A stretch of DNA of 64,000 nt from positions 384,001 to 448,000 of the forward strand of contig CAWJRG010000010.1 in the NCBI GenBank assembly GCA_963845185.1, in the 5' to 3' direction. Within the stretch, counting starts at the first letter, position 1. Every line of letters starts with the position of its first letter. This stretch comes from an uncultured bacterium (GTDB lineage: Bacteria > Oederibacteriota > PGYV01 > CAWJRG01). Position numbers and translations under genes: made by a program. Positions 6,736 through 25,475 of this stretch are shown here, piece after piece. The notes beneath the pieces were generated by a model. The model did no database searches. It was not told the origin of the DNA and was given only the letters and a program-made list of their open reading frames with translations.

Positions 6736-6797
6736 GTCCCCATGGTCTCCATCTCTTCTTATGTTAAAAGGATATTATATAAATACAGCTGAATTTT

Positions 6798-7319
6798 TTA
6801 TTGTTTGTTGAGGATCAGCGCGTTGGTGTTCGTGTACGTGCCGGTGCAGTATAAAATGCAGTCCCACATGTTCCACGTGCCTGTAATATTATGCGTCGTA
6901 AAATTCCCTTTGAAAGTTATGCCGTTGTTGTCGTCAACTGCGTTCAGCGAGGAACTGCTTATGGTCCCCACCATGCCATCCGGAGTCACAAGCGGCACAT
7001 AGCCGTCACTTCCGCCGTTACAGCTGCTCTGCACCGTCTGGTAATTTGAGGTTGAATAATTCAATGAAATATTGACCTTGTTTGAATCGCCGTTGTATTT
7101 CGTAATAACCCACGTCATTGTCCAGCTTGCCTGCGCCGTTGTTTCAGGCACGCCGTTCATGCCGTTGCAAAAATCGCTCTGGTAATAAAATGTCACGGGA
7201 ATTGATGTTTTCCATGTGCCGATGAGATTCCTCGCCGGAGACAATAAGGAAGTCAGGCTGCATCCCACCATGAAAAGGGCAATAACTACAGCCAGCAAAA
7301 ACAATAATAACTTTTTCAT
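6798..7319 (-). CDS. Hypothetical lipoprotein
   Basis: Lipobox FMVG/C after a hydrophobic stretch; GGAGG RBS. Confidence 0.75.
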   Translation of the reverse strand: MKKLLLFLLAVVIALFMVGCSLTSLLSPARNLIGTWKTSIPVTFYYQSDFCNGMNGVPETTAQASWTMTWVITKYNGDSNKVNISLNYSTSNYQTVQSSCNGGSDGYVPLVTPDGMVGTISSSSLNAVDDNNGITFKGNFTTHNITGTWNMWDCILYCTGTYTNTNALILNKQ

Positions 7320-7569
7320 TTGCGCCTCCTGTTTTCCTTTTTGATTTACTTAATTCTATTTATATGATTAATTGTTATCTTATATAGCATAATTGATAAT
7401 TTAGTTTCTGTCAAGTATTTTGTTTGATTTTTTAAATCTTCCTCAAATACTATAATTCATTTTAATAGCTTAATTATTGGCATTTAGCAGCTATTTAAAT
7501 GAACAAGCCCGTAGCTTGCGGCCACGGGCTTGTTACAATAATTTTATAACTTACTATTTAAAAACAAAT

Positions 7570-8550
7570 TTAATAAGTACGGGCAAAACGGAATCCGTAA
7601 TCTAACATCGCATAATACGGGTTTTCAATGCCGCGGTTGCCCACCGGCATTACAGCCGCGCTATTGTCAAAACAGCCACCCCTTGCCACCCGGATGTCTG
7701 TAAGTGCGGCTCCTCTATAATCAGTGGATGTGCCGGGATAATTTCCAAAACAGTCCCAGCACCATTCATAAACATTTCCTGACATATCATAAATGCCAAG
7801 CGCGTTCGGTTTTTTGCTGCCTACGTCATGCGTAGCAGACCCTGAATCCTCGCTGCACCATCCTACAAGCTCCGTTGCCGTTAAATCGGTATAATCATCA
7901 GTCGCGCCGCTGGCATAATCATACGGCGTCCAGCTTGACCCGTCTATGTAGCTTGCCGCACACTGATATTCGCCTTCTGTAGGCAGCCTGTATCCGTTCG
8001 CGCTCCAATTCACAAACGGGTTATCATAACTCCCTGCTGTTGTATTTATGCTGGCTCCATATGCCCCGTCTGTAGAATCCTCGATGGGCGTGGTAAAACC
8101 AGCTTCAGAATAATACACAGGCGTCAGCCCTGTTTTCAGACTGTACGCGTTGCACCAGACTATAGTATCCCGCCAGTTCACCATTATTACAGGCTGAAAT
8201 TTTGCTGCTGTCGGCGCTGCTCCGTCTGTCCCGCTGCTGCCCTCCCTGCCTGCATTTTGAAAAGTAAAACCGTTGTTGATGGCCCATTGATAAACCGTGT
8301 ACCACAACTCATATGTCACCTGGTACTTACCGATTTTAAAAGCAGAAATTGTATGGGTGAAGCCGTTTGTCCCGTCAGTTTGGTAAAATGTGCCGCCTGG
8401 AACCGATACAAGCGCTGAAGAATCAATCGTAGGTACAGGAGTCGCAGCCGGGGTTGTAGGCGATGAATTCTTTTTACTGCTGCAGCCTGTTATAATACTG
8501 AATAAAACAACAAATGCAATTAAAACAAAAAACAATACTGATTTTTTCAT
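7570..8550 (-). CDS. Lipoprotein with FGE-sulfatase (SUMF1/EgtB/PvdO, C-type lectin fold) domain
   Basis: Lipobox ITG/C; motifs YRLPTEGEY, KPNALGIYDMSGNVYEWCWD, RGG...GFR. Start at MKKSV (8550) with GGAGG RBS. Confidence 0.9.
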   Translation of the reverse strand: MKKSVLFFVLIAFVVLFSIITGCSSKKNSSPTTPAATPVPTIDSSALVSVPGGTFYQTDGTNGFTHTISAFKIGKYQVTYELWYTVYQWAINNGFTFQNAGREGSSGTDGAAPTAAKFQPVIMVNWRDTIVWCNAYSLKTGLTPVYYSEAGFTTPIEDSTDGAYGASINTTAGSYDNPFVNWSANGYRLPTEGEYQCAASYIDGSSWTPYDYASGATDDYTDLTATELVGWCSEDSGSATHDVGSKKPNALGIYDMSGNVYEWCWDCFGNYPGTSTDYRGAALTDIRVARGGCFDNSAAVMPVGNRGIENPYYAMLDYGFRFARTY

Positions 8551-8632
8551 CTGAAGCCTCCAGTTTTTACATTCGGTATTTGGTATTTTGGATTCAAATT
8601 CATGAATGCTGAATGCCAAATTGTTTTAAAAC

Positions 8633-9865
8633 CTACTGCGCCCACCACACGTCATTATAATAAACAGCGCCATTATCCCAGCCGGCTATTACCCACATAA
8701 CATTGTTGTAAACAACACTTGTATGATAGGTTCTTACGGCAAATCCTGCCGCTGACGTTGCTTCTATCCATGTTATTCCGTCGCTTGAGTTCCATATATC
8801 GTTCAAGAAACCACATGCTCCTGCCCCGCCTATCACCCAAATTAAGTTATTATATACCACGCTCGTATGGCCGTATCTCGCGCAAAATGCCGCGCCTGTT
8901 GTTGCAGGTGCCCAGTTTTTGCCGTCGGTTGAGCTCCAAACATCATTGTACCAGGCGCTGCCGTCTACACCGCCTATTACCCACATTTCATTTTTGAATA
9001 CAACGCCGGAAAGATTCTGCCTGGCGTTGAAAGAAGCCGCTGTTGTGGTGCATCCCCAGTTTTTACCATCGCTTGAATACCACGCGTCATTTAAAAAACT
9101 GCTCCCATAACCGCCTATCACCCACATTTCATTGTTGAACACAACGCTGGTATGGTATGTCCTTGGTGTAAATGCGCCTGCGGTCGTGGTGCATCCCCAA
9201 TTCACGCCGTTGCTGGAATACCAGACATCGCTGTGTACGCCGCTCCATGCACCGCCTATTACCCACATTAAATTATTGTATACCACACTTGTATGTCCGT
9301 ACCTTACGCTGAATGCAGCGGATGCATTTGCTTCGTACCATGTAGTACCATTGCTGGAATACCATATGTCGTTGTAGTATTTACTGGCATCCATTCCGCC
9401 TATAACCCACATTTCATTGTTATATACCACGCTGGTATGGTTGCCCCTTGCGTTGAATCCTGGCGCCGCTGTCGATAACGCCCACATGCTGCCGGATACA
9501 GGAGTGTATGTAATCGTAGCTGTTACTGTAACCGTGGGTGATATTGCCGGAGTAGAGGAAATAGTAAAAGTTGGCGTCCTTATCGTAGCTGTTGCTGTAA
9601 TCGTGGGCGATATTGCCGGAGTAGAGGAAATAGTAAAAGTTGGCGTCCTTGTGGATGTCTTGGACCAATTCGGAGTGCCTGTAAACATTGCAGCCGTGGC
9701 TGTCTGGTGCAGTACAGCGTTTGTTGCGCTGGCAGCTGCAGTTTGTGTCATATTAGGCGTGTCTGTCGCCTGCGGTGCAACAGGGTTGCTTTTCTTCTTT
9801 GAGCAGGAATTGGAAAGGATTGCCAATAATAGAATTGCAATTGCGATTATCACGAGCTTTTTCAT
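8633..9865 (-). CDS. Lipoprotein with Thr-rich linker and Kelch-like beta-propeller
   Basis: LSNS/C lipobox; repeated HTSVVYNNxMWVIGG...NDVWYSSDG blades. True start MKKL at 9865. Confidence 0.85.
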   Translation of the reverse strand: MKKLVIIAIAILLLAILSNSCSKKKSNPVAPQATDTPNMTQTAAASATNAVLHQTATAAMFTGTPNWSKTSTRTPTFTISSTPAISPTITATATIRTPTFTISSTPAISPTVTVTATITYTPVSGSMWALSTAAPGFNARGNHTSVVYNNEMWVIGGMDASKYYNDIWYSSNGTTWYEANASAAFSVRYGHTSVVYNNLMWVIGGAWSGVHSDVWYSSNGVNWGCTTTAGAFTPRTYHTSVVFNNEMWVIGGYGSSFLNDAWYSSDGKNWGCTTTAASFNARQNLSGVVFKNEMWVIGGVDGSAWYNDVWSSTDGKNWAPATTGAAFCARYGHTSVVYNNLIWVIGGAGACGFLNDIWNSSDGITWIEATSAAGFAVRTYHTSVVYNNVMWVIAGWDNGAVYYNDVWWAQ

Positions 9866-9955
9866 GATTAATGCCTCCCTTTTTAATATTTTCATATATT
9901 TTATCATTTATCCTGCTTCTGTCAAACAAAAAAGCCCGGAGGTCATCCGGGCCTT
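9866..9955 (-). promoter_or_regulatory. Repeated terminator + sigma70 promoter + RBS module (copy 1 of 6)
   Basis: GCCCGG-loop-CCGGGC-TTTTTTG followed by TTGACA-16nt-TAAAAT (TG-extended) and GGGAGGCATTAATCATG. Near-identical copies at ~11473-11560, 14107-14193, 17526-17615, 19174-19265 and 24135-24222. Confidence 0.85.
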
Positions 9956-10014
9956 TTATAATTCCTTAATCAACTATCCACTTTCACCTGCTCAACTTTC
10001 CCGCGCATCGCGCG

Positions 10015-11472
10015 CTACTGGCTCCACCACGAATCTGTCGGAAAAACATCGTAACTGCCCCATCCGTTCACTATCCACATTGCGTTGTTAAACACAACGC
10101 AGCTTGCGCCTGCCCTCGCGCTGAAAGCAGCGCCGGAAGTCGCCTGCGTCCAGTTAAACCCGTTGTCCGAGTACCATACGTCATTGGTGCTGTTGTTCCC
10201 GGCTATTGCCAGCGTCTGGCCGGCAATGACCCATATCTTATTGTTATATACCACGCATGCGGCCAGAAACCTAGGCGTAAAGCCGGCGTTCCCCGTAGCG
10301 CCTGCCCAGTTTGCTCCGTCCGTGGACCACCAGACGTCGTTATAGAATATATTTTCTATGTTGTTGTATCCGCCGGTCAGCCACATGGACCCGTTAAATG
10401 CCACGCATGAAGGCCCTGCCCTTTTAATGAAAGGGGCCTCCGCTGTTGCCTCCTGCCAGTTTGCTCCGTCAGATGAATACCAGACGTCGTTAAAATAGCC
10501 AACGCTGTCGCCTCCTGCTATCAACCACATTTTATTGTCATATACCACGCTGGCATGATAGCCCCTTAAGCCAAACGCCGCAGATGCGGTTGCCTCCTGC
10601 CAGTTTGCGCCGTCGTTTGAATACCATACGTCATTACAATAGCCTCCATAAATATTGCCTCCAATTACCCACATTTCGTTATTGAATACTACGCTGGAAT
10701 GATAGGCTCTGCCGCTAAACCCGGCGCCTGCCGTTGCCTGCGTCCAGTTTGCGCCGTTGTTCGAATACCAGACATCGTTGTATAAATAGCGTGTTCCGGA
10801 AAGATAATATACCCCTCCTATGAGCCACATATTATTATTGTAAACCAGGCTCGTATATTCTCCCCTTCCGCTTATTCCTGTAGTGCCGGTTGCTTGCGTC
10901 CATACGCTGCCGGGCACAGGAGTAATAGTCGGGGTGTATGTCGGGGTTGAAGTGCTTGTCCACAAAGCAGCCGCGGCTGTCTGCTGTTGCGCAACTATTG
11001 TCGCTATTGCCGCAGCAGTCTGTGTCGCATTTGGCGTTTGGGTATCTGTATATTCCGGCGTGACAGTAAACGTGCTCGTCGGGCTGTATCCTGCCGCTGC
11101 CGCTGTCTGCTGTGCCGCTATGCTCGTGGCTATCGCAGCTGATGTCTGCGTGGCATTTGGCGTAAGAGTATCAGTAAACGTGCTTGTCGGGCTAAAGCCC
11201 GCGGCTGCGGCTGTCTGCTGGGCAGCTATGATAGTTTCTATAGCCGCTATTGTCTGGCTTGCATTTGGAGTTGCCGTTATTGTCGGCGTGTTCGTAGGCG
11301 AGTAAAGTTTAATCGCCATTGTCTGCGTGGCGTTCGCGTTTGCCGTCGCCGCCAGTATCGCGCCAACTGTGCCCTGCACGTCCGGCGTGGATGGAGTTTT
11401 TGTTTTTGAGCAGGAATTGGAAAGGATTATGAATGATAAAATTGCGATTGCGGTTATCAAGGTTTTTTTCAT
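10015..11472 (-). CDS. Lipoprotein with 3-unit T/A/Q stalk and Kelch-like beta-propeller
   Basis: LSNS/C lipobox; three AQQTAAAA units; MWLIGG...NDVWYS blades. Start MKKT at 11472. Confidence 0.85.
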   Translation of the reverse strand: MKKTLITAIAILSFIILSNSCSKTKTPSTPDVQGTVGAILAATANANATQTMAIKLYSPTNTPTITATPNASQTIAAIETIIAAQQTAAAAGFSPTSTFTDTLTPNATQTSAAIATSIAAQQTAAAAGYSPTSTFTVTPEYTDTQTPNATQTAAAIATIVAQQQTAAAALWTSTSTPTYTPTITPVPGSVWTQATGTTGISGRGEYTSLVYNNNMWLIGGVYYLSGTRYLYNDVWYSNNGANWTQATAGAGFSGRAYHSSVVFNNEMWVIGGNIYGGYCNDVWYSNDGANWQEATASAAFGLRGYHASVVYDNKMWLIAGGDSVGYFNDVWYSSDGANWQEATAEAPFIKRAGPSCVAFNGSMWLTGGYNNIENIFYNDVWWSTDGANWAGATGNAGFTPRFLAACVVYNNKIWVIAGQTLAIAGNNSTNDVWYSDNGFNWTQATSGAAFSARAGASCVVFNNAMWIVNGWGSYDVFPTDSWWSQ

Positions 11473-11612
11473 GATTAATGCCTCCAGTTTGATATTTTTA
11501 TATATTTTATCATTTACCCCGCTTCTGTCAAACAAAAAAGCCCGGAGTTTCGCCTCGGGCCTGTATTCTTTAATTGAGCTTTGAACTTTGAACCTTGAGC
11601 TTGGCAGTCAAC

Positions 11613-12179
11613 TTACGGGTGGAATTTTTCGACTCTGTAATTCCCGCTGTCCACTACATACACGTTCCCGCTGCTGTCTACTGCTACTCCATAAGGACTG
11701 TTAAACTGGCCATTGCCGGTCCCGTAACTGCCCCATTGCGAAATATACACGCCTGTATTGCTGAATTTTTCTATCCTGTTGTTGCCTTGATCTACAACAA
11801 ACACATTTCCATTGCTGTCCACTGCTATCCCCTTTGGCCCGTTAAACTGCCCGTTGCCGCTTCCCTGAGTGCCCCACACGGTTACAAACATCGCGGTCAT
11901 GGTAGCTGTTGCGTTTGCGTTGGCTACCATGGTGCATATTGCCTGGGCCGTCTGTGTAGCGTTCGGCTAGGCAGTTGACGTTGCCGTGACTGTCGGCGTG
12001 TGCGCGGCCACGGTCTGCGTCTCCTGCGCCGCCATCTGCGTGTCCACCGCCTCCACCGTCGCCTGCACGTTCTGCGTGGGCTGGGGCGTCGGTGCCGCAG
12101 GGTTGCTTGTCTTGCTGCAGCCTGCCAATGCCAAAATAACCGCCAAAACCACAGCCATGCACATTAATATTTTTTTCAT
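11613..12179 (-). pseudogene. Short NHL-repeat lipoprotein interrupted by an in-frame TAG (11967-11969)
   Basis: ORFs 11967-12191 and 11613-11930 share a frame: ...TATSTA*PNATQTAQAICTMVANANATATMTAMFVTVWGTQGSGNGQF, followed by two NHL repeats. Confidence 0.75.
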
Positions 12180-12252
12180 TATGTTCTCCATTTATTTTTA
12201 GCTTTGGCTGAATGCCGAATGCCAAATTCCGAATCCAAAATGTTATTTAAGC

Positions 12253-14106
12253 CTATGGTTTAAATTTTTGGATTATGCCACGATATCGATCCGACACATA
12301 AACATCCCCGTTGTTGTCTGTTGCCATATAAGCGGGGTTGAGAAAATATCCATTCCCGGATCCTCCATAACCGCCCCATGAAGTTATAAACCCTCCGGAT
12401 GACGTATATTCCTCGATTCTAACCGGCCCATTTCCCACTCCGTTATTATTCAGCACATACACAGTTCCGCTGCTATCTACAGTTATTCCATAATCCGACA
12501 CGTTTTCAAAACCATCGCCCCATGAAGTTATAAACCCCCCCGATGATGTAAATTTCTGGATTCTTTCATTATTAGAATCCGCGACATACACATCACCTGC
12601 GCTGTCTATAGCTATCCCAACTGGCCACGAAAACTGTCCGTTATCGGTTCCGGCGCTTCCCCATGATGTTATGAATGTTCCGGATGATGTGAATTCCTCT
12701 ATCCTGTTATTACCCATATCCGTGGCATATACGTTACCGCTACTCATATTTACAGCTATTCCAATATAATAATCGAATCCATTTCCCCAGACAGTATCAG
12801 AAGGCCAAAAATTCCCGTCTCCGAATCCTTGACCTCCCCATGCAGTTATGTATTGACCTGCGGTTGTAAATTTCACTATTAACCCAGTGTCGATATTCCC
12901 GACGTATACATTACCGGCGTTGTCCAGAGCTAAGCCGGTGGACATTCCCATGCTCGGCCAACTGTTTATAGCTGCTCCCGATGAAGTGAATTCCTGTATT
13001 GTGCCATTTTGCGAGGCAGCAAACACATTTCCGCCGTTGTCAACTGCCAGTCCCTGCGCGCTGTCGAAACTCCATTGTGTCTGGAACATCGCCGTCATTG
13101 TCGCTGTTTGCTGCACCGCGGCAGTGGCTGCCGCCGCCGCTGCCGTCTGCTGTGCTGCGGCTGTCGCTATCTGCTGCGCCGCGGCAGTTGCCGAACAAAT
13201 TGCCACCGCCGTTTCCGTACCCTGTATCTGCGCTGTTTGCGTGGCATATACCTGTGCCGTTGATGTTGCCTGCACCTGCGCTATTTCTGTCGCGAGCGCT
13301 TGAATTGCCTGCGCTGTTGCAGTAGCTATTGCATTAGCGTCAGGGGTTGGAGTATTTGTGATAGTCGGCGTATTAGTCGCAGTGCTTGTGCTTGTCCAAC
13401 CCGCCGCCGCTGCTGTCTGCTGCTGCGCCACTATCGTAGCTATTGCTGCTGCTGTCTCTGTGGCGTTCGGTGTGAGCGTGTATGTGTCAGTCGGCACCGT
13501 AGTATAGGTATTCGTAGCGCTGTAGCCTGCCGCTACTGCCGTCTGCTGCTGCGCTATCATTGTCAGTATGGCCGCCGCTGTCTGCGTCGCGTTTGGCGTC
13601 ATTGTATTTGTAAAAGTGCTTGTTGCTGTATATCCTGCCGCTGCCGCTGTCTGCTGCTGCGCAACTGCCGTAAAAATCGCTGCCATTGTCTGAGTCGCAT
13701 TCGGCGTAAGAGTATCAGTAAACGTGCTTGTAGGGCTGTATCCCGCGGCAGCCGCTGTCTCTTGCTGCGCTATTATAGTAAGTATAGCTGCCTGCGTAAG
13801 CGCCACATTCGGCGTGCTGGTGGCAGTATACCCTGCCGAAATAGCTGTCTGTTGCTGGGCAATCATGGTAAGTACTGCCGCTTCTGTCTGGGCAATGTTC
13901 GGTGTCGCGCTGATTGTCGGAGTTGATGTTGGCGAATACAATTTTATGATTTCAGTCTGAGTGGCGTTTGCGTTTGCCGCTGCTGTCAGCGCCGCGTTCA
14001 CCGTGGCTGCCACGTCCGGCGTAGACGGGGTTTTTGTTTTCGAGCAGGAATTGGAAAGGATTGTGAGTAGTAAGATTGTGACTGCGATTATCCCAAACTT
14101 TTTCAT
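12253..14106 (-). CDS. Lipoprotein with 5-unit T/A/Q stalk and NHL-repeat propeller
   Basis: LSNS/C lipobox; five AQQxTA units; GIAIDSAGDVYVADSNNERIQKF repeats. Start MKKF at 14106. Confidence 0.85.
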   Translation of the reverse strand: MKKFGIIAVTILLLTILSNSCSKTKTPSTPDVAATVNAALTAAANANATQTEIIKLYSPTSTPTISATPNIAQTEAAVLTMIAQQQTAISAGYTATSTPNVALTQAAILTIIAQQETAAAAGYSPTSTFTDTLTPNATQTMAAIFTAVAQQQTAAAAGYTATSTFTNTMTPNATQTAAAILTMIAQQQTAVAAGYSATNTYTTVPTDTYTLTPNATETAAAIATIVAQQQTAAAAGWTSTSTATNTPTITNTPTPDANAIATATAQAIQALATEIAQVQATSTAQVYATQTAQIQGTETAVAICSATAAAQQIATAAAQQTAAAAAATAAVQQTATMTAMFQTQWSFDSAQGLAVDNGGNVFAASQNGTIQEFTSSGAAINSWPSMGMSTGLALDNAGNVYVGNIDTGLIVKFTTAGQYITAWGGQGFGDGNFWPSDTVWGNGFDYYIGIAVNMSSGNVYATDMGNNRIEEFTSSGTFITSWGSAGTDNGQFSWPVGIAIDSAGDVYVADSNNERIQKFTSSGGFITSWGDGFENVSDYGITVDSSGTVYVLNNNGVGNGPVRIEEYTSSGGFITSWGGYGGSGNGYFLNPAYMATDNNGDVYVSDRYRGIIQKFKP

Positions 14107-14289
14107 GATTAATGCCTCCCTTTTAATATTTTCATATATTTTATCATTTATCCCGTTTCTGTCAAACAAAAAAGCCCGGAGCTTTCGCCCGGGCCCGTTG
14201 CTGTTTTTATTTGGATTTTGAATCAAAAATTCCTAGTTATCAATCGCCAATTTTCAATGAAAAACAATTCAGAAAAACAGGTTCAGCTA

Positions 14290-17525: not shown

Positions 17526-17640
17526 GATTAATGCCTCCCTTTTAATATTTTCATATATTTTATCATTTATCCCGTTTCTGTCAAACAAAAAAGCCCGGAA
17601 CTTCCGTCCGGGCTTAGATAATATTTATAATTTGCTGTTA

Positions 17641-19173
17641 TTATTGGCGTGTAACAACACGTATGCCGTTGCCAACTATAGATGAGTCGGCCGGGAAGTC
17701 GTCCCAACGGAAGCCAACCTGGAGGTTGGACGCGTCATAGTGATAGTTACCACCCCTCATTATACGGTTAGAGCCGCTCGTTGCGCCTTTATAATCAATT
17801 TCACCAGCGGCAGGATAAGCCGCATACCAATCCCAGCACCACTCGTATAAATTGCCCGACATATCATAGATGCCCAGGGCATTTGGCGCTTTAGTGCCCA
17901 CAGGCTGTGTTCCGCCGCTTGCATTAAAAAGAAACCACGCTACAAGCGCAGTTGCTGTCGTGTCAGAATAAACGTCTGTTGCGCCGCTTGCATAGTTGGG
18001 CGGAGTGCCTGTATAACTTGCCGCGTACTGGTACTCGCCTTCTGTAGGCAGCCTGTAACCGTTCGCGGCCCAGTTCACATACGGATTATCAAAACATCCG
18101 GCGGCAGTACAGGTAGTAGTGCTATAGCTCCCGCTTACAGATGATGTAATTGGCTGGGCAAATGCCGAGTCATAATAGTAAACAGGCGTTAAACCCTTAT
18201 ATTGGCTATATGCGTTACACCACACTATGGCATCCCTCCAGTTTATCTTTGTTACCGGCTGATTTACAGTAACCGGCGCTGCCCCGGGTGTCCCGCTGCC
18301 TGCCTCCTCCATGCCATAATTTTGAAATGCATAACTTGTGGCCCATATGCGCACCGTGTACCATAAATTATAGGTCAGCAGGTATTTCCCTATATTAAAA
18401 GCAGAAATTGTATGCGCAAAACTGTTTCCGCTTGTATCTTCCTGTACATATGTCCCGCCCGGAACCGAAACAAGTACTGAATAATCAATCGTAGCAGTTG
18501 GTGTTGCCGTAAAAGTAGGCGTCACTGTTGGTGTAGCCGTTATCGTCGTTGTAGCTGTCCATAAAGCCGCTGCTGCTGTCTGCTGCTGGGCCACTATCGT
18601 CGCTATTGCCGCGGCTGTCTGCGTCTGGTCCGGCGTATTTATGTTGGTAGGTGTTGCTGTTATTGTAGGCGTTATTGTAACAGTGCATGTCGCGGTATAT
18701 CCGACTGCCGCTGCTGTTTGCTGCTGCGCAATCATTGTCAAAATCGAAGCGGCTGTCTGTGTCGCGTTCGGCGTCAACGTATTTGTAAAAGTGCTTGTCG
18801 CGGTATATCCGGCCGCTGCTGCTGTCTGTTGCTGCGCTATTATAGTAAGTACAGCTGCCTGCGTAAGCGCCACATTCGGCGTGCCGGTGGCAGTATACCC
18901 TGCTGAAATAGCTGTCTGCTGCTGGGCAATCATTGTGAGCACTGCCGCTTCTGTCTGGGCAATGTTCGGTGTCGCGCTGATTGTCGGAGTCGATGTCGGC
19001 GAATACAGCTTTATTATTTCTGTCTGTGTGGCGTTTGTCCCTGCTGCCGCTGTCAATGCCGCGTTTACCGTAGCTGCCACATTTGGCGTGGACGGGTTGT
19101 TTGTTTTCGAGCAGGAATTGGAAAGGATTGCGAATAATAGAATTCCGGCTGCGATTATCCCGGGCTTTTTCAT
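17641..19173 (-). CDS. Lipoprotein with 4-unit T/A/Q stalk and FGE-sulfatase domain
   Basis: LSNS/C lipobox; four AQQQTA units; YRLPTEGEY and PNALGIYDMSGNLYEWCWD. Confidence 0.9.
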   Translation of the reverse strand: MKKPGIIAAGILLFAILSNSCSKTNNPSTPNVAATVNAALTAAAGTNATQTEIIKLYSPTSTPTISATPNIAQTEAAVLTMIAQQQTAISAGYTATGTPNVALTQAAVLTIIAQQQTAAAAGYTATSTFTNTLTPNATQTAASILTMIAQQQTAAAVGYTATCTVTITPTITATPTNINTPDQTQTAAAIATIVAQQQTAAAALWTATTTITATPTVTPTFTATPTATIDYSVLVSVPGGTYVQEDTSGNSFAHTISAFNIGKYLLTYNLWYTVRIWATSYAFQNYGMEEAGSGTPGAAPVTVNQPVTKINWRDAIVWCNAYSQYKGLTPVYYYDSAFAQPITSSVSGSYSTTTCTAAGCFDNPYVNWAANGYRLPTEGEYQYAASYTGTPPNYASGATDVYSDTTATALVAWFLFNASGGTQPVGTKAPNALGIYDMSGNLYEWCWDWYAAYPAAGEIDYKGATSGSNRIMRGGNYHYDASNLQVGFRWDDFPADSSIVGNGIRVVTRQ

Positions 19174-19392
19174 GATTAATGCCTCCCTTTAAATAATTTT
19201 CATATATTTTATCATTTACTCCGCCCCTGTCAAACAAAAAAAGCCCGGAGCTTTCGCCCCGGGGCTGTTGTTTTTAATATTATTCCATTTGGCATTTCTT
19301 TAATATTTCCTTCCGAACATCTTTAAGAACTATGTTTGAACTCTTTTTGAACTCCTTGCGGACATCCTCAAAGAACTCTTTCCGGGCGTTAT

Positions 19393-20628
19393 TTAGGTTT
19401 GATGCTGTTTTTCCAGTATTTTTTCCGTATTCATAAAAAATTCTTCTGCTTCAAGACATTTCGTATCTGATTTATCATGTTTTTTCATGAAAGACACAAC
19501 AACTTTTTCCGTGTTTTTATACCTGTTCGAAAAAATATCCAGCGCAGCCGCGGCCTTGCCTGGATCCCCGGATTTTACTTCCACTGCAATGAGTCTGCCG
19601 CCTATGCTTAATACATAATCAACCTCAAAGTCTCTTTCACGCCAATAAAACAGCTCTCCGCCCTGTTCCTGGGCCAGCCAGTATAATCTGGAACCGACAG
19701 CGTTTTCAAACAGCCTTCCCCGGTAAGCAAGGTCTTTAAACGATTGTTTAAAAGTACGGTTGTTTACGACGCTTATTATTGAATTATCAAGGGAAAGTAT
19801 TTTGGGGCTTGAACTTTTCTGTTTTATCCTGCTTCCGCTGTATTTATCAAGCGGAACAAGAAAAAAAGCATTTGCCATTAATCTTAAATAAAAAGCTATT
19901 GTGGTGGTGTTACCCGCATCCTGCAGTTGCCCCAGCATTTTTTGATAACTGAGTATTTCAGCAGGGTGATTAAGGCAAAGCGCAAAAGCCTGCCTTAACA
20001 AAGCAGGTTTTGTGACCGGATTCATAAGCAGGACATCTTTTGCTATTACAGTTTCAATTATGGCGTCCTTTATATATATTGCCCATCGTCTTATATTTTT
20101 TCTGATTTTTGCGGCCCCGGGATACCCGCCGTAATAAATATAATCATTTAGGGTAAATTTAAAAAATTCTTTGCACTCCTCATAAGACCAGTGGCTGTGC
20201 CTGTTTATTTCAAATCTTCCGGCAAGGCTTTCTGTCAATCCGCGCTGCATTAACAAAGATGACGAGCCTAAAATTACTATTCTTACGCGTGCCTGTTCTC
20301 TTTCATTCTTATCGTAAACATATTTTAGAGTATTGCTCCACCCGGGTATTTTCTGTATTTCATCTATTATTAACAACGTCTCGCGCTTAATCCGTTTCGC
20401 GGCATCGGCGGCAGTGTTATTTAATTCAATTATCCAGTTTCTGCTCTCCGCGCCGGGCGCGTCTGCGGTCGCGTAAAAACTCGGCCCCTTCCAACTGTCT
20501 TTAATCTGCAATACGAGCGTAGTTTTGCCCGTCTGCCTAGGCCCAATTAAAGCCTGTATAAACCGCGGCCCCCGGTTTAATTTTCCATTTATCTCTTTGT
20601 ACTGTTTTTTCCGCAAATATATTTTCAT
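19393..20628 (-). CDS. AAA-family ATPase (AAA_14 + DUF4143)
   Basis: Walker A GPRQTGKT, Walker B LIIDEIQK, ESLAGR, C-terminal EVDYV...AVEVKS nuclease-like motif. Confidence 0.9.
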   Translation of the reverse strand: MKIYLRKKQYKEINGKLNRGPRFIQALIGPRQTGKTTLVLQIKDSWKGPSFYATADAPGAESRNWIIELNNTAADAAKRIKRETLLIIDEIQKIPGWSNTLKYVYDKNEREQARVRIVILGSSSLLMQRGLTESLAGRFEINRHSHWSYEECKEFFKFTLNDYIYYGGYPGAAKIRKNIRRWAIYIKDAIIETVIAKDVLLMNPVTKPALLRQAFALCLNHPAEILSYQKMLGQLQDAGNTTTIAFYLRLMANAFFLVPLDKYSGSRIKQKSSSPKILSLDNSIISVVNNRTFKQSFKDLAYRGRLFENAVGSRLYWLAQEQGGELFYWRERDFEVDYVLSIGGRLIAVEVKSGDPGKAAAALDIFSNRYKNTEKVVVSFMKKHDKSDTKCLEAEEFFMNTEKILEKQHQT

Positions 20629-20693: not shown

Positions 20694-20826
20694 CAGTTCA
20701 ATATTATACGCAAATAGTACTATCCCTGACTATTCCCCGGGTTATTCGACGGATAAAAGTCATCGTGATACTCCAAAATATGTTTTTTTCAAAAGGCAAA
20801 GAGGAGTGCTCAACTATTATAAATCT

Positions 20827-20934
20827 CCCTGCGGCAGAGACCGCAGGGTATTCTAAAGGCATTGATGATTTGAGTAACCTACGGTTTCTCAAACTCTTCC
20901 CTTACAAGGAAACCCCGTGGCAAGACCGACGGGG
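20827..20934. repeat. Paired hairpins resembling IS200/IS605-type ends (non-autonomous)
   Basis: CCCTGCGGCAGAGACCGCAGGG and CCCCGTGGCAAGACCGACGGGG, ~65 nt apart, with no transposase. Confidence 0.5.
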
Positions 20935-20964
20935 AATATGTTTATTTAATCTGTCCAGACTGTA

Positions 20965-21619
20965 ATCGAGTAGGAGTCTGGCGATTAGTTCACCAGCCGT
21001 CCTCTCACACCACCCTGCATGCGGTTCCGCACAGGGCGGTTCCTGAAAATTATAAACAATTTATGCAGCTAACGGTTTATCCTTCAACCATCCGTTTCCT
21101 GACATCTTTTGTTCCGGGTTACTTAACTCTGCGTTTAGTCCTGGCTCGATTGACACACTCGTTAACATCCATGGCTGATTCCGTCAGCCTCCTATGTGCA
21201 GAGCGGAGGGTTTCTATCCTCTCTTGCTGCGTCTCCTCGTCCTGTAGGTTTCAAAGTTTCTTTTTCTCCCTGTTTTCAAGTTCTGCCCTTCGTTTGTGGC
21301 CTCAAACTACTATGGCTTCTGCTGACTCCTCGAATTTTCCTTCGAGGTCTCCCCAGATATCACACTCCCGCTTTCACGCTTATGCCTGCCGCATCTACGT
21401 CCGTACCTCCCGTGCAAGTACTGGACTTTAGAGACATTGGCCTCCTCATCCGATACGTCCGCCTTATATGCGGTTTCTGTTCGTCAGGCCAGCGCTTTGC
21501 CTTTGGCTTCCTGCGGATTCCACCTCACGGTGGACACCCTTGCCATTAAGCTAACGATTCCCCTTGCCGGGTTCGTGAGGAACTTTCATCCCTTATCGGA
21601 TGTGCGCTGCTGGGCGTAC
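20965..21619 (-). mobile_element. ORF-less class C (IIC) group II intron inserted after an intrinsic terminator
   Basis: 5' end GTACGCCCAGC at 21619 directly after GGCCCGGGCGAAAGTCCGGGCTTTTTGTTTG. Domain V/VI GAACCGCCCTGTGCGGAACCGCATGCAGGGTGGTGTGAGAGG...CCTACTCGAT ends at 20965. About 655 nt, no RT ORF. Confidence 0.88.
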
Positions 21620-21814
21620 CAAACAAAAAGCCCGGACTTTCGCCCGGGCCTTTTGCTTTATATTATTCTATTCTGTATTCTGCATTCAGCAAACCATCCA
21701 ACCCTCCGGCCTTCCATTCCTCCGCCTTTATTGCCCCGGGCTTATTACTTTTGCTTTATTCTATATTATATATGGCCTTTGGAATACCGATTACCAAATT
21801 CCAAATCTAAAATA

Positions 21815-22237
21815 TTACGGTTTGAACACTTCAACTATATTATTCCCATAATCTGCGACATACACGTTCCCGCTGCTGTCTACTGCTATTCCTTCAGGTG
21901 CAGAAAACTGCCCGTTACCGGTGCAGCAGCTGCCCCAGGAAGTCACAAACATCGCGGTCATGGTAGCTGTTGCGTTTGCGTTGGCTACCATGGTGCATAT
22001 TGCCTGGGCCGTCTGTGTAGCGTTCGGCTAGGCAGTTGACGTTGCCGTGACTGTCGGCGTGTGCGCGGCCACGGTCTGCGTCTCCTGCGCCGCCATCTGC
22101 GTGTCCACCGTCGCCTGCACGTTCTGCGTGGGCTGGGGCGTCGGTGCCGCAGGGTTGCTGGACTTGGAGCACGCCGGAATAATAACCATTATTAAAATTG
22201 TGGTGAAAGTTAAGAGCGCAAATCTGTTTTTTATCAT
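21815..22237 (-). pseudogene. Short single-NHL lipoprotein interrupted by an in-frame TAG (22028-22030)
   Basis: IPA/C lipobox; ...TATSTA*PNATQTAQAICTMVANANATATMTAMFVTSWGSCCTGNGQFSAPEGIAVDSSGNVYVADYGNNIVEVFKP*; 141 codons in one frame. Confidence 0.75.
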
Positions 22238-22286
22238 TTCAACTCCTCCTATTTATTTCGCCGTATATTTTAAAAACAGCGAAATT

Positions 22287-24134
22287 CTATTGGCTGAACA
22301 CCTCTACATACGGGTCGGCATCCGGATCAACAACATACACTTTGCCGCTGTTGCCAACGGCAATGGCCCACGGATACGCAAACTGCACCGAACTGCCCCA
22401 CATTGTTATAAAATCCAGGTTTGACGTAAATTTCTGCACATCTAAACCTTGAAGATCAACGACATACACATTTCCGCTATTGTCCACTGTTACTCCCTGG
22501 GGATTCTCAAACTGCCCTGGCCCGTTCCCATAAGTTCCCCCAATCCCTTGTACAAATACTCCCATTGACGTGAATTTCCATAGCCCTTCGAGATTAACTA
22601 CATATACATAATTTCCGCTGTTGTCTATGGCTATTCCTGCTGGGAAAGTAGAACTTGTCCAAAGAGGATAACTCCACGACTTTATTAACTCTCCCGTTGG
22701 CGAATATTCCATGACATTATAGCCGGCAAAGACATAGATGTTGCCACTGTTGTCTACTGCTATTGTTTTATTGTCAGTAATACCAGCCAGTGTTTTTATG
22801 CATTCACCTGTTGATGTGAATTCAAATACTCCGCCATTATCAATTAAATAAACATTACCGCTGTTGTCCACCGTTATTCCATCAGGTGGCATATAAAAAT
22901 TCCAGCCGCAGGCGCTGCCGTCCCATGCAATTATAAATTGACCGGCTGACGTAAACTCCTCTATTCTCTTATTGCCTGAGTCCGAGACATACACATTCCC
23001 GTTGTTTTTGTTTACGGCCACGCCACCGGGAACGTAAAGCTGCCCGTCTCCGGAACCGGGGCTGCCCCATGCCGACATGTTCATTGCGGTCATTGTTGCC
23101 GTTTCCTGCGCATTCACCTGCGCTGTTGCCGTTGCCTGCGCATTTGCCTGTGCTGTGGCTGTTTCCTGTGCCTGCGCCTGCGCCGTTTCCGCTGCCTGTT
23201 CCGTCGCAGTTTCTGCCGGTGGCAGCGCTGCCGCTGTCTGCGTCGCCTGCGCCTGCGCTGTTGCTGTGCCAACCACCTGCGCTGTTAACTCTGCCTGCGC
23301 TGCGGCTGTCGCCTGCGCCTGTGCCGTTGCTGTGCCAACCACCTGCGCCGTTAACTCTGCCTGAGCCTGCGTTGTGGCCGTTGCCTGCACCTGCATTATG
23401 GCAGTTAAAGTTGCCTGCGCCTGCGCCGTTGCGCCTGCCGTCAGCAGTATTACAGCTGTCTGTGTAGCCGGCGCCTCTGCCGTCTGCTGTGCCTGCGCGG
23501 TTGCTGTTTCCTGCGTCTGAATTGCCGCTGCTGTCTGCTGCTGCGCCACTATCGTGGCTATTGCCGCCGCTGTCTGCGTCGCGTTTGGCGTAAGAGTATA
23601 TGTATCAGCCAGCACAGCGGTATAAGTACTTGTTGCGCTGTACCCTGCCGCCGCCGCTGTCTGCTGCTGCGCAACTATTGTCGCGATCGCGGCTGCTGTC
23701 TGCGTGGCATTCGGCGTGAGCGTGAAAGTAAATGTAGGCGTCGCGGTATATCCTGCCGCGCCTGCCGTCTGCTGCTGGGCTACAAGCGTCAAAATTGCCG
23801 CTGCTGTCTGCGTAGCGTTCAGCGTCGGGGTAAGCGTAAATGTTACTGTAACGGTATATCCTGCCGCGCCCGCTGTCTGCTGCTGGGCTACAAGCGTCAA
23901 AATTGCCGCTGCTGTCTGCGTAGCGTTCGGAGTATCCGTGATTGTCGGCGTATTTGTCGGTGAATACAGCTTTATTATCATTGTCTGAGTGGCGTTTGCG
24001 TTTGCCTGCGTGGTCATTATTGCGCCGACCGTGCCCTGCACATCGGGCGTGGACGGTGTTTTTGTTTTCGAGCAGGAATTGGAAAGGATTGCGAATAATA
24101 GAATTCCGACTGCGATTATACCGAACTTTTTCAT
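22287..24134 (-). CDS. Lipoprotein with long T/A/Q stalk and NHL-repeat propeller
   Basis: LSNS/C lipobox; four AQQQTA units plus an ATAQAQ region; NHL repeats. Confidence 0.85.
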   Translation of the reverse strand: MKKFGIIAVGILLFAILSNSCSKTKTPSTPDVQGTVGAIMTTQANANATQTMIIKLYSPTNTPTITDTPNATQTAAAILTLVAQQQTAGAAGYTVTVTFTLTPTLNATQTAAAILTLVAQQQTAGAAGYTATPTFTFTLTPNATQTAAAIATIVAQQQTAAAAGYSATSTYTAVLADTYTLTPNATQTAAAIATIVAQQQTAAAIQTQETATAQAQQTAEAPATQTAVILLTAGATAQAQATLTAIMQVQATATTQAQAELTAQVVGTATAQAQATAAAQAELTAQVVGTATAQAQATQTAAALPPAETATEQAAETAQAQAQETATAQANAQATATAQVNAQETATMTAMNMSAWGSPGSGDGQLYVPGGVAVNKNNGNVYVSDSGNKRIEEFTSAGQFIIAWDGSACGWNFYMPPDGITVDNSGNVYLIDNGGVFEFTSTGECIKTLAGITDNKTIAVDNSGNIYVFAGYNVMEYSPTGELIKSWSYPLWTSSTFPAGIAIDNSGNYVYVVNLEGLWKFTSMGVFVQGIGGTYGNGPGQFENPQGVTVDNSGNVYVVDLQGLDVQKFTSNLDFITMWGSSVQFAYPWAIAVGNSGKVYVVDPDADPYVEVFSQ

Positions 24135-24302
24135 GATTAATTCCTCCCTTTTAATGTTTTCTATATTTTATCACTTATCCCGCTTCTGTCAAACAAAAAA
24201 GCCCGGAGTCTATGCCCCGGGCCTGTTGTTTTTGCATTTATCTATTCTGTATTCGGCATTCAGCATTCAAGCATTCGAATCCAGAATCCCAAATCTTAAA
24301 GA

Positions 24303-25475
24303 TTACGGATGGAATTTTTCGATTCTATTATTTATAGTGTCTGCAACATACACGTTTCCGCTGCTGTCTATTGCTATTCCAGTAGGCTCACTAAACTGCC
24401 CGTTGCTTGTTCCATAACTTCCCCATTGCGTGATATACGTGCCCGTGCTGGTGAATTCCTGGATTCTATAATTGTTTACGTCCGTTACATATACGTTTCC
24501 GCTGCTGTCTATTGCTATCCACCCGGCGCCATTAAACGACCCATTGCCGCTTCCGGGAGTTGTTGCAGAACTGCCCCATTGTGATATATATGCGCCTGTG
24601 CTGGTGAATTCTTCGATTCTGTTATTATAATAATCTGCAACATATACATCTCCGCTGCTGTTTATTGCTATTCCGACAGGCTCATCAAACTGCCCGTTGG
24701 TTATTCCGGGACTGCCCCATTGTGTGATATATGCGCCCGTACTGCTGAATTCTTCGATTCTGTTGCCATTTGTGTCTGAAATATACACGTTTCCGTTGCT
24801 GTCTGTTGCTATTCCCTGGGGATGATTAAACTGCCCGTTGCCCGTTCCTAAACTACCCCATTGTGTGATATATGCGCCTGTACTGCTGAATTCTTCGATT
24901 CTGCTGTTTCCATAGTCTGCAACATACACATTCCCGCTGCTGCCTACTGCTATTCCAGCAGGACCTCTACTGCCAGCAATAGCCCCAAACTGCCCAATGC
25001 CGTTTCCAAAACTGCCCCATTGAGTTATATATGTGCCTGCACTGTTAAATTTCTGGATCCTGTAATTTAAAGTATCTGCAACATATACATCTCCGCTGCT
25101 ATCTACCGCCACTCCATAAGGATAATAAAACTGCCCGTTGCCGCTTCCCTGGCTGCTCCATGTGGTTACAAACATTACGGTCATTGTCGCTGTCTGCTGC
25201 GCTGAAGTTCCGGCTGTCTGCAGCGCAATAGCTGTTTGTGTCGCATTTGCCTGCGCCGTGGTTGTCTGCTGTGCCTGTGCCGTGGCTGTTTCCTGCGCCG
25301 ATAGCCCGGCTGTCTGCAAATAAACTGCCGTGGCTGTTGCCGCCGCAGCCTGCGCTGTGGCTGTCATGTTGGGTGTGTTTGTTGCTGCAGGACGGGTAGG
25401 GGTAGGCAATTTTTTGCAATTGAATATAATTATGAATACAAATAGAATTAATGCCGGGATTAAGATTTTTTTCAT
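24303..25475 (-). CDS. NHL-repeat lipoprotein
   Basis: IFN/C lipobox; six WGSxGxGNGQFxxPxGIAxDSSGNVYVAD repeats. Confidence 0.9.
   Translation of the reverse strand: MKKILIPALILFVFIIIFNCKKLPTPTRPAATNTPNMTATAQAAAATATAVYLQTAGLSAQETATAQAQQTTTAQANATQTAIALQTAGTSAQQTATMTVMFVTTWSSQGSGNGQFYYPYGVAVDSSGDVYVADTLNYRIQKFNSAGTYITQWGSFGNGIGQFGAIAGSRGPAGIAVGSSGNVYVADYGNSRIEEFSSTGAYITQWGSLGTGNGQFNHPQGIATDSNGNVYISDTNGNRIEEFSSTGAYITQWGSPGITNGQFDEPVGIAINSSGDVYVADYYNNRIEEFTSTGAYISQWGSSATTPGSGNGSFNGAGWIAIDSSGNVYVTDVNNYRIQEFTSTGTYITQWGSYGTSNGQFSEPTGIAIDSSGNVYVADTINNRIEKFHP

Follow-up and report, generated by a model that had tools for sequence, protein, structure and literature searches.

Why do putative lipoprotein genes whose heads belong to unrelated folds open, within one locus, with the same block of DNA? 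The question is raised by positions 6798-25475 of a 64,000-nt stretch of contig CAWJRG010000010.1 (the whole stretch is called the window here, and all coordinates are positions in it). ORF listing and a scan for signal peptides and cysteines yielded 12 co-oriented minus-strand genes in this region, each with a signal peptide ending in Cys, in agreement with the about 12 co-oriented lipoprotein genes counted in a first-pass annotation. The genes are named after their start codons (25475, 24134, 22237, 19173, 17525, 15588, 14106, 12179, 11472, 9865, 8550 and 7319). Ten of them are intact, and the short NHL genes s12179 and s22237 each contain an in-frame TAG. The row is broken by a non-lipoprotein gene with its own promoter, encoding a DUF4143/AAA_14 ATPase (DUF4143 AAA ATPase; 19393..20628, minus strand), and by an ORF-less group II intron (~20965-21619).

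Six genes (9865, 11472, 14106, 17525, 19173 and 24134) open with a common block of ~160 nt, in which the alignment shows, in this order, a hairpin (GCCCGG..CCGGGC), T6-7, GTTTGACA, 16 nt, TG-n-TAAAAT, GGGAGG, ATG and the leader MKK..ILSNSCSK. The cassette copies lie on the minus strand at 9800..9955 (copy 1), 11407..11562 (copy 2), 14041..14196 (copy 3), 17460..17615 (copy 4), 19108..19263 (copy 5) and 24069..24224 (copy 6); the last comprises hairpin, T-run, TTGACA-16-TAAAAT with TG, GGGAGG and the signal peptide MKKFGIIAVGILLFAILSNSC. A profile of the block, compared with the genome of 3,496,445 bases, recovered exactly six copies (E 3e-53 to 2.3e-48; next match E 1.6e-4). The mean pairwise identity was 84% from hairpin to ribosome-binding site, 84% in the signal peptide and 27% just upstream of the hairpin, at which the homology has a sharp 5' edge. 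The sequence core around the promoter is invariant in all six copies, SKTKTPSTP is conserved after the Cys, and copies 3 and 4 (genes 14106 and 17525) have 98 exact nt in common. The block had earlier been described as almost identical in six genes; the number and the promoter core stand, but the wording overstates a mean identity of 84%. Past the cassette, homology between paralogs continues into the coding sequence and through the stalk for 400-700 nt. Codon pairs for the same residue were identical in 193/240 cases (0.80) in the signal peptide versus 2901/5289 (0.55) in the stalk units, and this extra conservation of the cassette at the nucleotide level could reflect homogenising conversion instead of regulatory constraint.

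Each cassette promoter has the form TTGACA-16-TGnTAAAAT, scores 11/12 and is preceded by a hairpin and T-run (6/6). Independent transcription, as first proposed for every unit, is supported for the six cassette genes by their own near-consensus promoters and upstream terminators, but not throughout the array, since three gene pairs have no terminator in between and are probably co-transcribed.

Pfam assigned the heads of the cassette genes to Kelch (two), NHL (two), RCC1 and FGE-sulfatase, i.e., to four unrelated folds, as the first-pass annotation had done. From the 5' end of the array, all on the minus strand, g25475 (24303..25475) encodes a six-blade NHL lipoprotein with a type-B leader MKKILIPALILFVFIIIFNC; its own promoter (12/12) lies at 25640-25612 and a hairpin at ~25713-25686. 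It is followed by g24134 (22287..24134), with leader, four stalk units, a TAQ-rich low-complexity region and an NHL head; s22237 (21817..22237), with one NHL blade, its own leader and the TAG at 22028-22030; and g19173 (17641..19173), with leader, four stalk units and an FGE-sulfatase (C-type-lectin-like) head, the sole stalked gene among the six FGE genes of the genome. Next are g17525 (15900..17525), with leader, two to three stalk units and an RCC1 propeller, and g15588 (14290..15588), with a type-B leader, a Thr-rich linker, its own 12/12 promoter (15653-15625) and a repeat-built head for which Pfam and NCBIfam scans gave no match. Gene g14106 (12253..14106) has a leader, five stalk units, an Ala/Gln/Thr-rich region and an NHL head; s12179 (11613..12179) has two NHL blades, the lipobox LAGC and the TAG at 11967-11969. 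Kelch propellers are encoded by g11472 (10015..11472; leader, three stalk units) and g9865 (8633..9865; cassette leader, one degenerate stalk unit), the latter with a 23-aa tandem repeat, TPTFTISSTPAISPT, at 9513-9650 (minus strand). No terminator separates g9865 from g8550 (7570..8550), which encodes an FGE-sulfatase lipoprotein with its own leader (IITGC). The last gene, g7319 (6798..7319), encodes a small lipoprotein (MVGC) without a match in the Pfam family scan.

The stalk unit comprises 36 aa, TPNATQTAAAIATIVAQQQTAAAAGY. Stalk units are absent from genes 25475, 15588, 8550 and 7319, and the counts per gene agree with the zero to five copies reported at first. In eight stalk units a 16-residue core is identical in protein and 22-25 of 25 residues are alike, whereas the DNA is only 76-91% alike (mean nucleotide identity 81% over 28 pairs), which argues that strong purifying selection, not homogenisation, keeps them. 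The visible junctions fall at the boundary between signal peptide and mature protein, within the Thr/Pro linker that follows the final stalk unit and at the stop codon, not within units; the earlier proposal, in which the stalk repeats act as crossover sites, is not supported, the units being more than spacers for crossovers. The repeat is also present behind two leaders other than the cassette leader, and in a gene elsewhere in the genome (C9) that combines a different leader with a CBM-like head, the stalk has 90.6% identity with that of g24134 across 287 nt. The stalk unit occurred in about a dozen protein clusters among 1.84 billion, and is a new, very narrowly distributed repeat. Two structure predictions of the presumed stalk gave pLDDT values of only 32.9 and 37.7.

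Leaders, stalks and heads do not share one history. Among 46 informative sites in five genes, the splits (14106,17525)/(19173,24134), seen up to nt +93, give way to (14106,19173)/(17525,24134) from nt +97 on, which places a breakpoint at the signal-peptide/mature boundary (max-chi2 permutation p=2e-4; PHI-like p=0.0056). On the N-terminal tree of 11 proteins, head type requires five changes (shuffled mean 5.6), and AU tests on this tree reject clades by head type (NHL p=0.014, RCC1 p=1.6e-4, FGE p<<0.001). The N-terminal pairings noticed at the outset, of g14106 (NHL) with g19173 (FGE) and of g11472 (Kelch) with g17525 (RCC1) and g24134 (NHL), were found as stated, and the comparison of N-terminal and head phylogenies with breakpoint tests, suggested at the same time, gave discordance. 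Between the two NHL heads that follow a stalk the identity is only 33.6%, lower than that of each to its best unstalked relative at another place in the genome (46.6% and 41.7%). At the other end of the genes, the 3'UTR and hairpin of g17525 (RCC1; 15907-15808) are 92% identical over 100 nt to those of g11472 (Kelch). Since most paralogous segments are 70-90% identical, most exchanges are old.

Regarding the short NHL genes, positions 21945-22160 (s22237) are identical to 11884-12108 (s12179) save for one 9-nt indel (216/225 nt), the longest exact match being 166 nt, and this tract is flanked by unrelated leaders and by a blade with pS 0.33; recent gene conversion is indicated. Together with the 98-nt match between cassettes, the 166-nt match shows that exchange is still ongoing, and a faster process of exchange may be relevant at the population level. 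The first-pass reading of the array as a recombination-driven diversification system thus fits as far as mosaic modules and recent conversion are concerned, whereas nothing shows a dedicated or programmed system.

The same hairpin-promoter-leader-stalk design was found on a contig of a related metagenome organism, at ~80-89% nucleotide identity. In this relative, the RCC1 gene of L011 carries the N-terminus of g11472 (Kelch), with 79.4% identity over 457 nt and the same hairpin-promoter; the comparison with related genomes that had been recommended thus placed the stalk of a Kelch gene of the window on an RCC1 head. In P0006, an FGE head stands on an N-terminus resembling that of g17525 (RCC1).

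We consider it probable that the array belongs to a lineage-specific family of presumed outer-surface lipoproteins, in which one 5' cassette was spread by recombination onto long-diverged binding domains. The cassette consists of terminator hairpin, strong sigma-70-type promoter, strong ribosome site, Cys-ending signal peptide, the first ~10 mature residues and variable stalk units. Its spread would have proceeded via duplication, gene conversion, and illegitimate or homologous recombination, and its recipients would be domains diverged long beforehand, namely Kelch, NHL and RCC1 propellers, FGE/C-type-lectin-like domains and a CBM11-like module at another site in the genome. We infer surface exposure, co-expression, ligand binding and a spacer role of the stalk: the cassette would let all the proteins be expressed, exported and lipid-anchored in the same way, the stalk would space the head from the membrane, and the heads would confer differing ligand specificities. 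A common cassette for expression and anchoring, joined to differing heads, argues for a co-regulated repertoire of binders that is probably displayed simultaneously, not switched.

The closest parallel is offered by the Erp proteins (OspE/F-related, 'upstream homology box') of Borrelia burgdorferi. In the part of PMC10016077 that covers them, these paralogs are described as having promoter DNA, leader and first mature residues in common, with the remaining parts of the ORFs of independent origin and recombining among paralogs, i.e., one promoter, leader and localisation sequence joined to many unrelated external parts; the same part describes them as surface-exposed, co-expressed binders of different ligands. 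Unlike Erp, the array forms a chromosomal tandem on a 908-kb contig (one locus per cp32 prophage plasmid in Erp), its proteins carry a 36-aa repeat stalk between leader and head, its heads have large folds recognisable as propellers or lectins, and its host is an uncultured freshwater-sediment diderm; Pfam and NCBIfam scans of the array revealed no OspE/F-type family, only Kelch, NHL, RCC1 and FGE. The likeness is, on our reading, one of working principle and not of membership. The array is thus probably an Erp-like, presumably co-regulated repertoire of surface binders that arose from duplication, conversion and domain shuffling. The pattern is that of ordinary recombination among gene copies, known already from Lyme-disease spirochetes and mycoplasmas, and the mechanism is not new.

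The design principle of Erp and Vpma, one expression and export cassette with many unrelated surface domains, would then not be limited to host-associated pathogens, the host here being a free-living uncultured sediment bacterium whose surface is shaped by such cassette sharing. Three exchangeable layers (leader, stalk and head) are seen, with conservation on both flanks of the head, the stalk repeat is testable as a display spacer, and the array offers a clean natural case for studying the assembly of binding repertoires by gene conversion and domain shuffling. A further-reaching reading, which we regard as doubtful, takes the array as a natural 'plug-and-display' locus, in which the 5' cassette and the 3'UTR/terminator serve as homology arms, heads and stalks are still being exchanged, and the 36-aa unit is a new functional envelope module, such as a helical spacer glycosylated at the N-A-T sequon or an element that associates with itself. 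The natural population would then hold many combinations of heads and stalks, with a distinct surface-binding repertoire in each lineage, and the exact tracts of 166 and 98 nt would be the freshest traces of exchange.

Programmed antigenic or phase variation, in which cassette and 3' flank would act as recombination sites that allow frequent exchange of heads or stalks, or on/off switching, as in Mycoplasma vpma/vsp/vsa, vlp or pilE/pilS-type cassettes, is unlikely. A conserved 5' UTR and signal peptide before divergent bodies is the hallmark of vpma/vsp in the section of PMC2268961 on these loci, the 3'UTR and hairpin are common to two unrelated heads, the exact paralog tracts of 166 and 98 nt point to recent conversion, and the two truncated, TAG-interrupted NHL genes are readable as donor fragments. 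However, all six cassette genes keep an 11/12 promoter and a ribosome site, so that silent copies are absent, all array genes are co-oriented, and most paralogous segments have diverged to the 70-90% identity given above. The search for silent promoterless cassettes found none, the promoters recovered being six of 11/12 and two of 12/12. An inverted-repeat search of the array gave 11 pairs, none of which brackets a promoter or gene; the best (44 nt, 86%) lies in low-complexity 3' UTR sequence. Tyrosine or serine recombinases were found neither in 14 proteins of the array and its flanks nor in 26 of the 36 other listed window ORFs, in accord with the initial remark that no dedicated recombinase is visible in the array; the sole transposase found (IS110) lies ~36 kb away.

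Among the mycoplasma systems, Vpma of M. agalactiae and Vsp of M. bovis resemble the array as clustered families with conserved 5' UTR and signal peptide and differing, repeat-containing mature parts, as far as the same section of PMC2268961 describes them. In Vpma/Vsp, one promoter is moved by Xer1/Mbr-mediated inversions and the recombinase gene lies beside the locus, whereas the array genes each have a promoter, point in one direction and were found with no recombinase. An inversion switch of the Vpma/Vsp/Vsa type was rejected on these eight promoters, on the scanned proteins and on the lack of bracketing inverted repeats. In the Vlp system of M. hyorhinis, each gene has its own promoter before a conserved leader. 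Switching of Vlp occurs by changes in homopolymer length in the -35/-10 spacer, according to that section of PMC2268961. Homopolymers in the array region reach 7 nt at most; the -35/-10 spacers are free of such tracts, their 16 nt having runs of at most 4 nt, and a slipped-strand switch of the Vlp type was rejected.

That the common block stems from a small mobile element with a promoter (MITE-like or borne by the terminator hairpin) that inserts before lipoprotein genes, and not from gene duplication and conversion, is very unlikely. Its sharp 5' boundary at the hairpin, the local amplification of the hairpin type (of 14 regex matches genome-wide, 11 lie in the window's span) and a group II intron directly after one such hairpin would suit an insertion, but the block lacks a 3' end of its own, terminal inverted repeats and a target duplication, homology running on for the several hundred nt noted above, and the six copies are confined to one locus and one orientation. 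Moreover, hairpin and T-run can be explained as a plain intrinsic terminator that serves the upstream gene, and the cassette-type hairpin also occurs without the promoter part, at 15842-15813 and 21649-21630.

An assembly artefact, with the near-identical modules or the identical tract being chimeric joins in a metagenome-assembled genome, is highly improbable. The assembly of this uncultured organism comprises 11 contigs and repeats may mislead assemblers, but the cassettes differ mutually by ~16% and are easily told apart, the array lies inside a 908-kb contig without any N, and the same design was recovered independently on the contig of the related organism. In a public run, which may not be independent of the assembly, seven small contigs were identical to the array with no other letters, and one of them (11787-11937) spans the edge of the tract common to s12179 and s22237.

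FGE-sulfatase and C-type-lectin folds are common targets of DGRs, and with RT genes in the genome and hairpins between the genes, one may think of a DGR, or of a cassette array of the integron type, with the FGE or propeller heads as its targets, but this is scarcely credible: the RT matches in the genome number six, all of 142.1 bits and one within the group II intron at the window's start, no DGR and no template repeat for the FGE heads were found (in both FGE genes, the final 261 nt have matches in other FGE paralogs only, at <=84%), and an integron was rejected on genes with their own promoters, on short terminator hairpins (~22-26 nt, not attC-like) and on the lack of an integrase (IntI) among the scanned window proteins.

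Regarding lipidation and export, the lipobox consensus is [LVI][ASTVI][GAS]C; the six cassette genes read LSNSC, off this consensus, whereas s12179 (LAGC) and g8550 (ITGC) fit. The Cys at the end of the signal peptide is invariant across all members and relatives, and the genome encodes two Lgt, LspA and Omp85/BamA. Lipidation of the cassette proteins is suggested by this invariant Cys ending a hydrophobic stretch and by the canonical lipoboxes of neighbours.

The group II intron between s22237 and the ATPase gene (20965..21619, minus strand) has a GTACG 5' end at ~21619 and domains V-VI at 21041-20965, and matched the Rfam models RF02001 (139.3 bits), RF01998 (53.3 bits) and RF00029 (43.7 bits). 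It starts 10-11 nt after the hairpin and T-run of a terminator (21649-21630, minus strand), and by this position and its build, in an element without an IEP, it is IIC-like and a putative member of group IIC. Introns of this group habitually sit after terminators, as the abstract of PMC1702495 states.

The array of probable surface lipoproteins occupies positions 6798-25475 and consists of 12 co-oriented minus-strand genes, the products of which start with MKK or MIK, followed by a hydrophobic stretch and a Cys (ORF listing and signal-peptide/Cys scan). The first-pass annotation had described about 12 such genes ending in unrelated heads (C-terminal domains), which agrees with the Pfam assignments: NHL heads in g25475, g24134, g14106 (genes are named by the position of the start codon) and two short genes, s12179 and s22237; FGE-sulfatase heads in g19173 and g8550; an RCC1 head in g17525; and Kelch heads in g11472 and g9865. 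The products of g15588 and g7319 yielded no family match in Pfam or NCBIfam. The head of g15588 (14290-15588, minus strand) is made up of repeats, each about 45 aa long (PCYW..G..TDL...ANSIY), and its neighbours in the ESM Atlas were unnamed clusters only, scoring 0.96. Ten of the 12 genes are intact; an in-frame TAG is present in the two short NHL genes. The row is broken up by a gene for a DUF4143 AAA ATPase (19393-20628, minus strand) and by the ORF-less group II intron described below. Lgt (two copies), LspA and an Omp85/BamA protein are encoded in the genome, so the organism is regarded as a diderm with lipoprotein machinery.

Six genes (g9865, g11472, g14106, g17525, g19173 and g24134; copies 1-6) begin with a shared 5' cassette, which in the alignment has the order hairpin GCCCGG-loop-CCGGGC, six to seven T residues, GTTTGACA, 16 nt, TG-n-TAAAAT, approximately 25 nt, GGGAGG, ATG and MKK..ILSNSCSK. 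In a consensus scan each of the six promoters matched at 11 of 12 positions and carried the TG extension, and the hairpins scored as terminator-like sites. Among the copies, mean pairwise identity is 27% immediately before the hairpin, rises to 84% between the hairpin and the RBS, stays at 84% over the signal peptide and falls to 66% across the following 83 nt. A block common to six genes had been proposed and was recovered, but its description as almost identical is too strong for a mean identity of 84%, though copies 3 and 4 have 98 exact nt in common. The 3.50-Mb, 11-contig genome contains exactly six copies (motif search and nhmmer profile; E-values 3e-53 to 2.3e-48, next match 1.6e-4). 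Nucleotide conservation of the cassette exceeds the needs of the protein, a sign of regulatory constraint, of conversion or of both. In 40 related genomes of the same order or phylum the cassette was not found, and matches there were confined to stretches of at most 53 nt in the hairpin or promoter. Two other genes, g25475 and g15588, have leaders of another, looser type (MKKILIPALIL...) and promoters matching at 12 of 12 positions; leaders of this type also occur in the array of a related organism. The GCCCGG..CCGGGC type of terminator is locally amplified, with 11 of 14 regex matches in the genome falling inside the window span.

The array genes are mosaic at every module boundary. At the boundary between signal peptide and mature protein, informative sites support the grouping (g14106,g17525)+(g19173,g24134) up to nt +93 and (g14106,g19173)+(g17525,g24134) from nt +97 (46 informative sites in five cassette genes; maximum chi-square permutation p=2e-4, PHI-like p=0.0056). 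In a tree built from the N-terminal 75 residues of the mature part of 11 proteins, head type required five changes (minimum 3; shuffled mean 5.6). AU tests rejected monophyly by head type for NHL (p=0.014), RCC1 (p=1.6e-4) and FGE (p<<0.001), which upholds the earlier claim that N-terminal subtypes do not follow head type. The two stalked NHL heads are only 33.6% identical, and each resembles unstalked relatives at other genomic loci more closely (46.6% and 41.7%); thus a young N-terminal module has been joined to long-diverged heads. Only one of the six FGE genes in the genome is stalked. Downstream of the heads, the 3'UTR and hairpin following g11472 (Kelch) and g17525 (RCC1) share 92% identity over the 100 nt that begin at the stop codon, and at least these two heads are therefore flanked by conserved sequence on both sides. 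The closest pair of stalks (the repeat regions between leader and head) is that of g24134 and a stalked gene on contig 9, with 90.6% identity over 287 nt; their leaders and heads differ.

Contigs of the related metagenome organism, the conserved genes of which are approximately 80-89% identical to those of the source genome, have an array of their own, which runs NHL, stalked RCC1, CBM-like, NHL, NHL and RCC1. Its RCC1 gene has the same hairpin-promoter as the window cassette, an N-terminus that corresponds to that of the Kelch gene in the window (79.4% identity over 457 nt) and a head with 67.5% identity to the head of g17525. Some junctions are stable, since the contig-9 gene and its counterpart in the relative keep the same junction (83.5% identity over 1233 nt).

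The stalk repeat has a period of 108 nt, each unit comprising a conserved core of approximately 25 aa, TPNATQTAAAIATIVAQQQTAAAAGY, and behind it a Thr-rich linker. When a profile of 16 units was searched against the 26,246 six-frame ORFs of the genome, seven proved to contain units, five of them cassette genes with 5, 4, 4, 3 and 2-3 units. The sixth cassette gene, g9865, has one degenerate unit only, plus a distinct 23-aa repeat; these counts are in line with the range of 0-5 copies per gene reported previously. Outside the array, stalked genes with a different leader and promoter are located on contig 9 (CBM11-like head, leader ...SGSC) and contig 5 (Kelch head, leader ...PQAC). In eight units a 16-residue core is identical in the protein (22-25 of 25 residues alike), but the DNA is 76-91% alike (mean 81%, 28 pairs), and where the residue is the same, the codons agree in 55% of pairs in the stalk versus 80% in the signal peptide, which argues that the unit is kept by selection at the peptide level and not by recent homogenisation. 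Neither Pfam nor NCBIfam contained a match to the stalk, and the best hit of a profile search of the PDB had an E-value of 0.23. AlphaFold2 gave no usable model for g19173 alone (pLDDT 32.9) or for the N-terminal 195 residues with a five-row alignment (pLDDT 37.7); a pattern of a helix and a short strand per unit is only a hint. The family has a very narrow distribution: nine proteins at E≤1e-3 came from a word-indexed search (8000 scored candidates), and again nine, one of them apparently spurious, from an exhaustive profile search that covered 1.84 billion representatives. Four loci belong to a single metagenome. No relatives were found in 185,579 species genomes by two scans (0/85 and 0/91 candidate stretches). 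All true matches have the same plan, namely a leader with Cys, stalk units and then an FGE, NHL, RCC1 or CBM-like head. An N-A-T sequon (TPNATQT) opens nearly every unit, and ANANATQT lies ahead of the first one; glycosylation of the stalk would be conceivable. A glycan locus with ArnT-like enzymes is located at 42-52 kb of the window.

The two short NHL genes are truncated, s12179 (11613-12179, minus strand) having two blades and s22237 (21817-22237, minus strand) one, and both carry the same in-frame TAG. They have in common a tract of 225 nt (11884-12108) and 216 nt (21945-22160), respectively, which is identical save for a 9-nt indel (longest exact run 166 nt). On one side of it the leaders are unrelated, and on the other lies a blade whose pS is 0.33. 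The shared TAG lies inside this tract, at the position that the first Thr/Leu of a stalk unit would occupy, and the reading frame is open beyond it in both genes. Evidently a nonsense allele was copied by recent conversion between paralogs 10 kb apart; the pair look like a conversion-spread allele and not like recoding, because TAG is an ordinary stop in the neighbouring genes.

In the proposed working, the cassette would supply strong common transcription and translation signals and a predicted export/lipidation signal, the stalk would space the head away from the membrane, and the heads (propellers, lectin-like FGE domains and, elsewhere, CBM11-like modules) would together provide differing putative binding specificities. 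We infer that the cell may display binders of glycans or particles as a co-regulated set. Tandem duplication, unequal exchange within the 108-nt repeats and, in the Thr/Pro-coding linkers, conversion or illegitimate joining probably enlarged the family, which still exchanges short tracts. The closest known kind, by analogy, is the Erp family of Borrelia ('upstream homology box'), in which one promoter/leader/localisation sequence is combined with many unrelated external parts, and the members are co-expressed and recombine between paralogs (PMC10016077). The array would work alike without belonging to that family, since it shows no homology to Erp, is chromosomal and has a stalk in addition. 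Its interest lies in the tandem copy number, the leader/stalk/head modularity in which the head has conserved sequence on either side, the fresh conversion tract and the new, strongly selected stalk repeat.

The observation of the array was thus confirmed, whereas its interpretation as recombination-driven diversification held in part, for the mosaicism, and not for a dedicated or programmed system. A conserved 5'UTR and signal peptide are also features of the Mycoplasma Vpma/Vsp systems, which use one promoter and an Xer1-type recombinase (PMC2268961); neither a single shared promoter nor, among the scanned proteins, such a recombinase was found here. An inversion switch was rejected in view of the co-orientation of all the array genes, the separate promoter of each of the six cassette genes and the eleven inverted-repeat pairs, which are short and bracket nothing meaningful. 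The absence of a dedicated recombinase, already remarked upon, extends to 14 array and flank proteins and 26 further window ORFs (26 of the 36 listed flank ORFs), among which no recombinase family was found. Mobile-element genes in the window are an IS110 transposase (61253-62299) and a group II RT (2-1111). A DGR acting on the FGE heads was rejected: no template repeat was found, and the six RTs of the genome are identical-score copies, one located in a group II intron. A slipped-strand switch was likewise rejected, the region having no run of more than 7 nt and no such run in a promoter spacer. An integron is dismissed, as the scanned window proteins include no integrase/recombinase family and the genes have their own promoters. 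Independent transcription of each unit, as originally suggested, is supported for the six cassette genes by their own promoters but probably does not apply throughout, since no hairpin separates g24134/s22237, g14106/s12179 and g9865/g8550, which are probably bicistronic units. Public data yielded one run, with 0.06 of the sampled words, and no RNA run. Over 6700-25600 its reads gave 20 small pieces, at least seven of which (87-173 nt) were identical to the window; joints occurred only in the intron and one Kelch repeat, and the pieces carry no information on alternative junctions or expression.

An ORF-less group II intron of approximately 650 nt (about 20965-21619, minus strand; Rfam RF02001 139 bits, RF01998 53 bits, RF00029 44 bits) begins 10-11 nt past an array-type terminator hairpin (hairpin and intron 20965-21649). 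This fits the position after terminators ascribed to group IIC introns in PMC1702495. Regarding a possible seventh promoter split by the intron, the match to the cassette extends only through TTTTTGTTTG, and the sequence beyond the intron is unlike the cassette. The intron is single-copy in the genome, save for a 157-nt stretch of 78% identity on contig 1, and of the introns with the six identical-score RT genes, the one typed by Rfam (949-1183 of the window) matches a different ribozyme subtype.

The array adjoins a gene for a 1230-aa secreted protein (3043-6735, minus strand) with a weak arabinofuranosidase-like region, two CBM11/CIA30-like modules, which the head of the contig-9 stalked gene resembles, and a C-terminal PNPFNP-type domain. 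A Kelch gene (59366-60361) and an NHL gene (62546-63457) lie on either side of the IS110-family transposase. NHL repeats are massively expanded genome-wide: of 484 candidates 150 matches were scored, spread over dozens of ORFs that reach approximately 2100 aa. Low-complexity, degenerate sequence rich in GGA/TTTGG (TTTGGATTCGGAATTTGGCATTC and the like) comes directly behind the coding region of several NHL and Kelch genes, after the stop codon, in both organisms (approximately 24240-24300, 12200-12250, 8575-8625 and 21780-21815 in the window, and 1030-1120 in L011, a contig of the relative); one pair was detected as a 44-nt inverted repeat.
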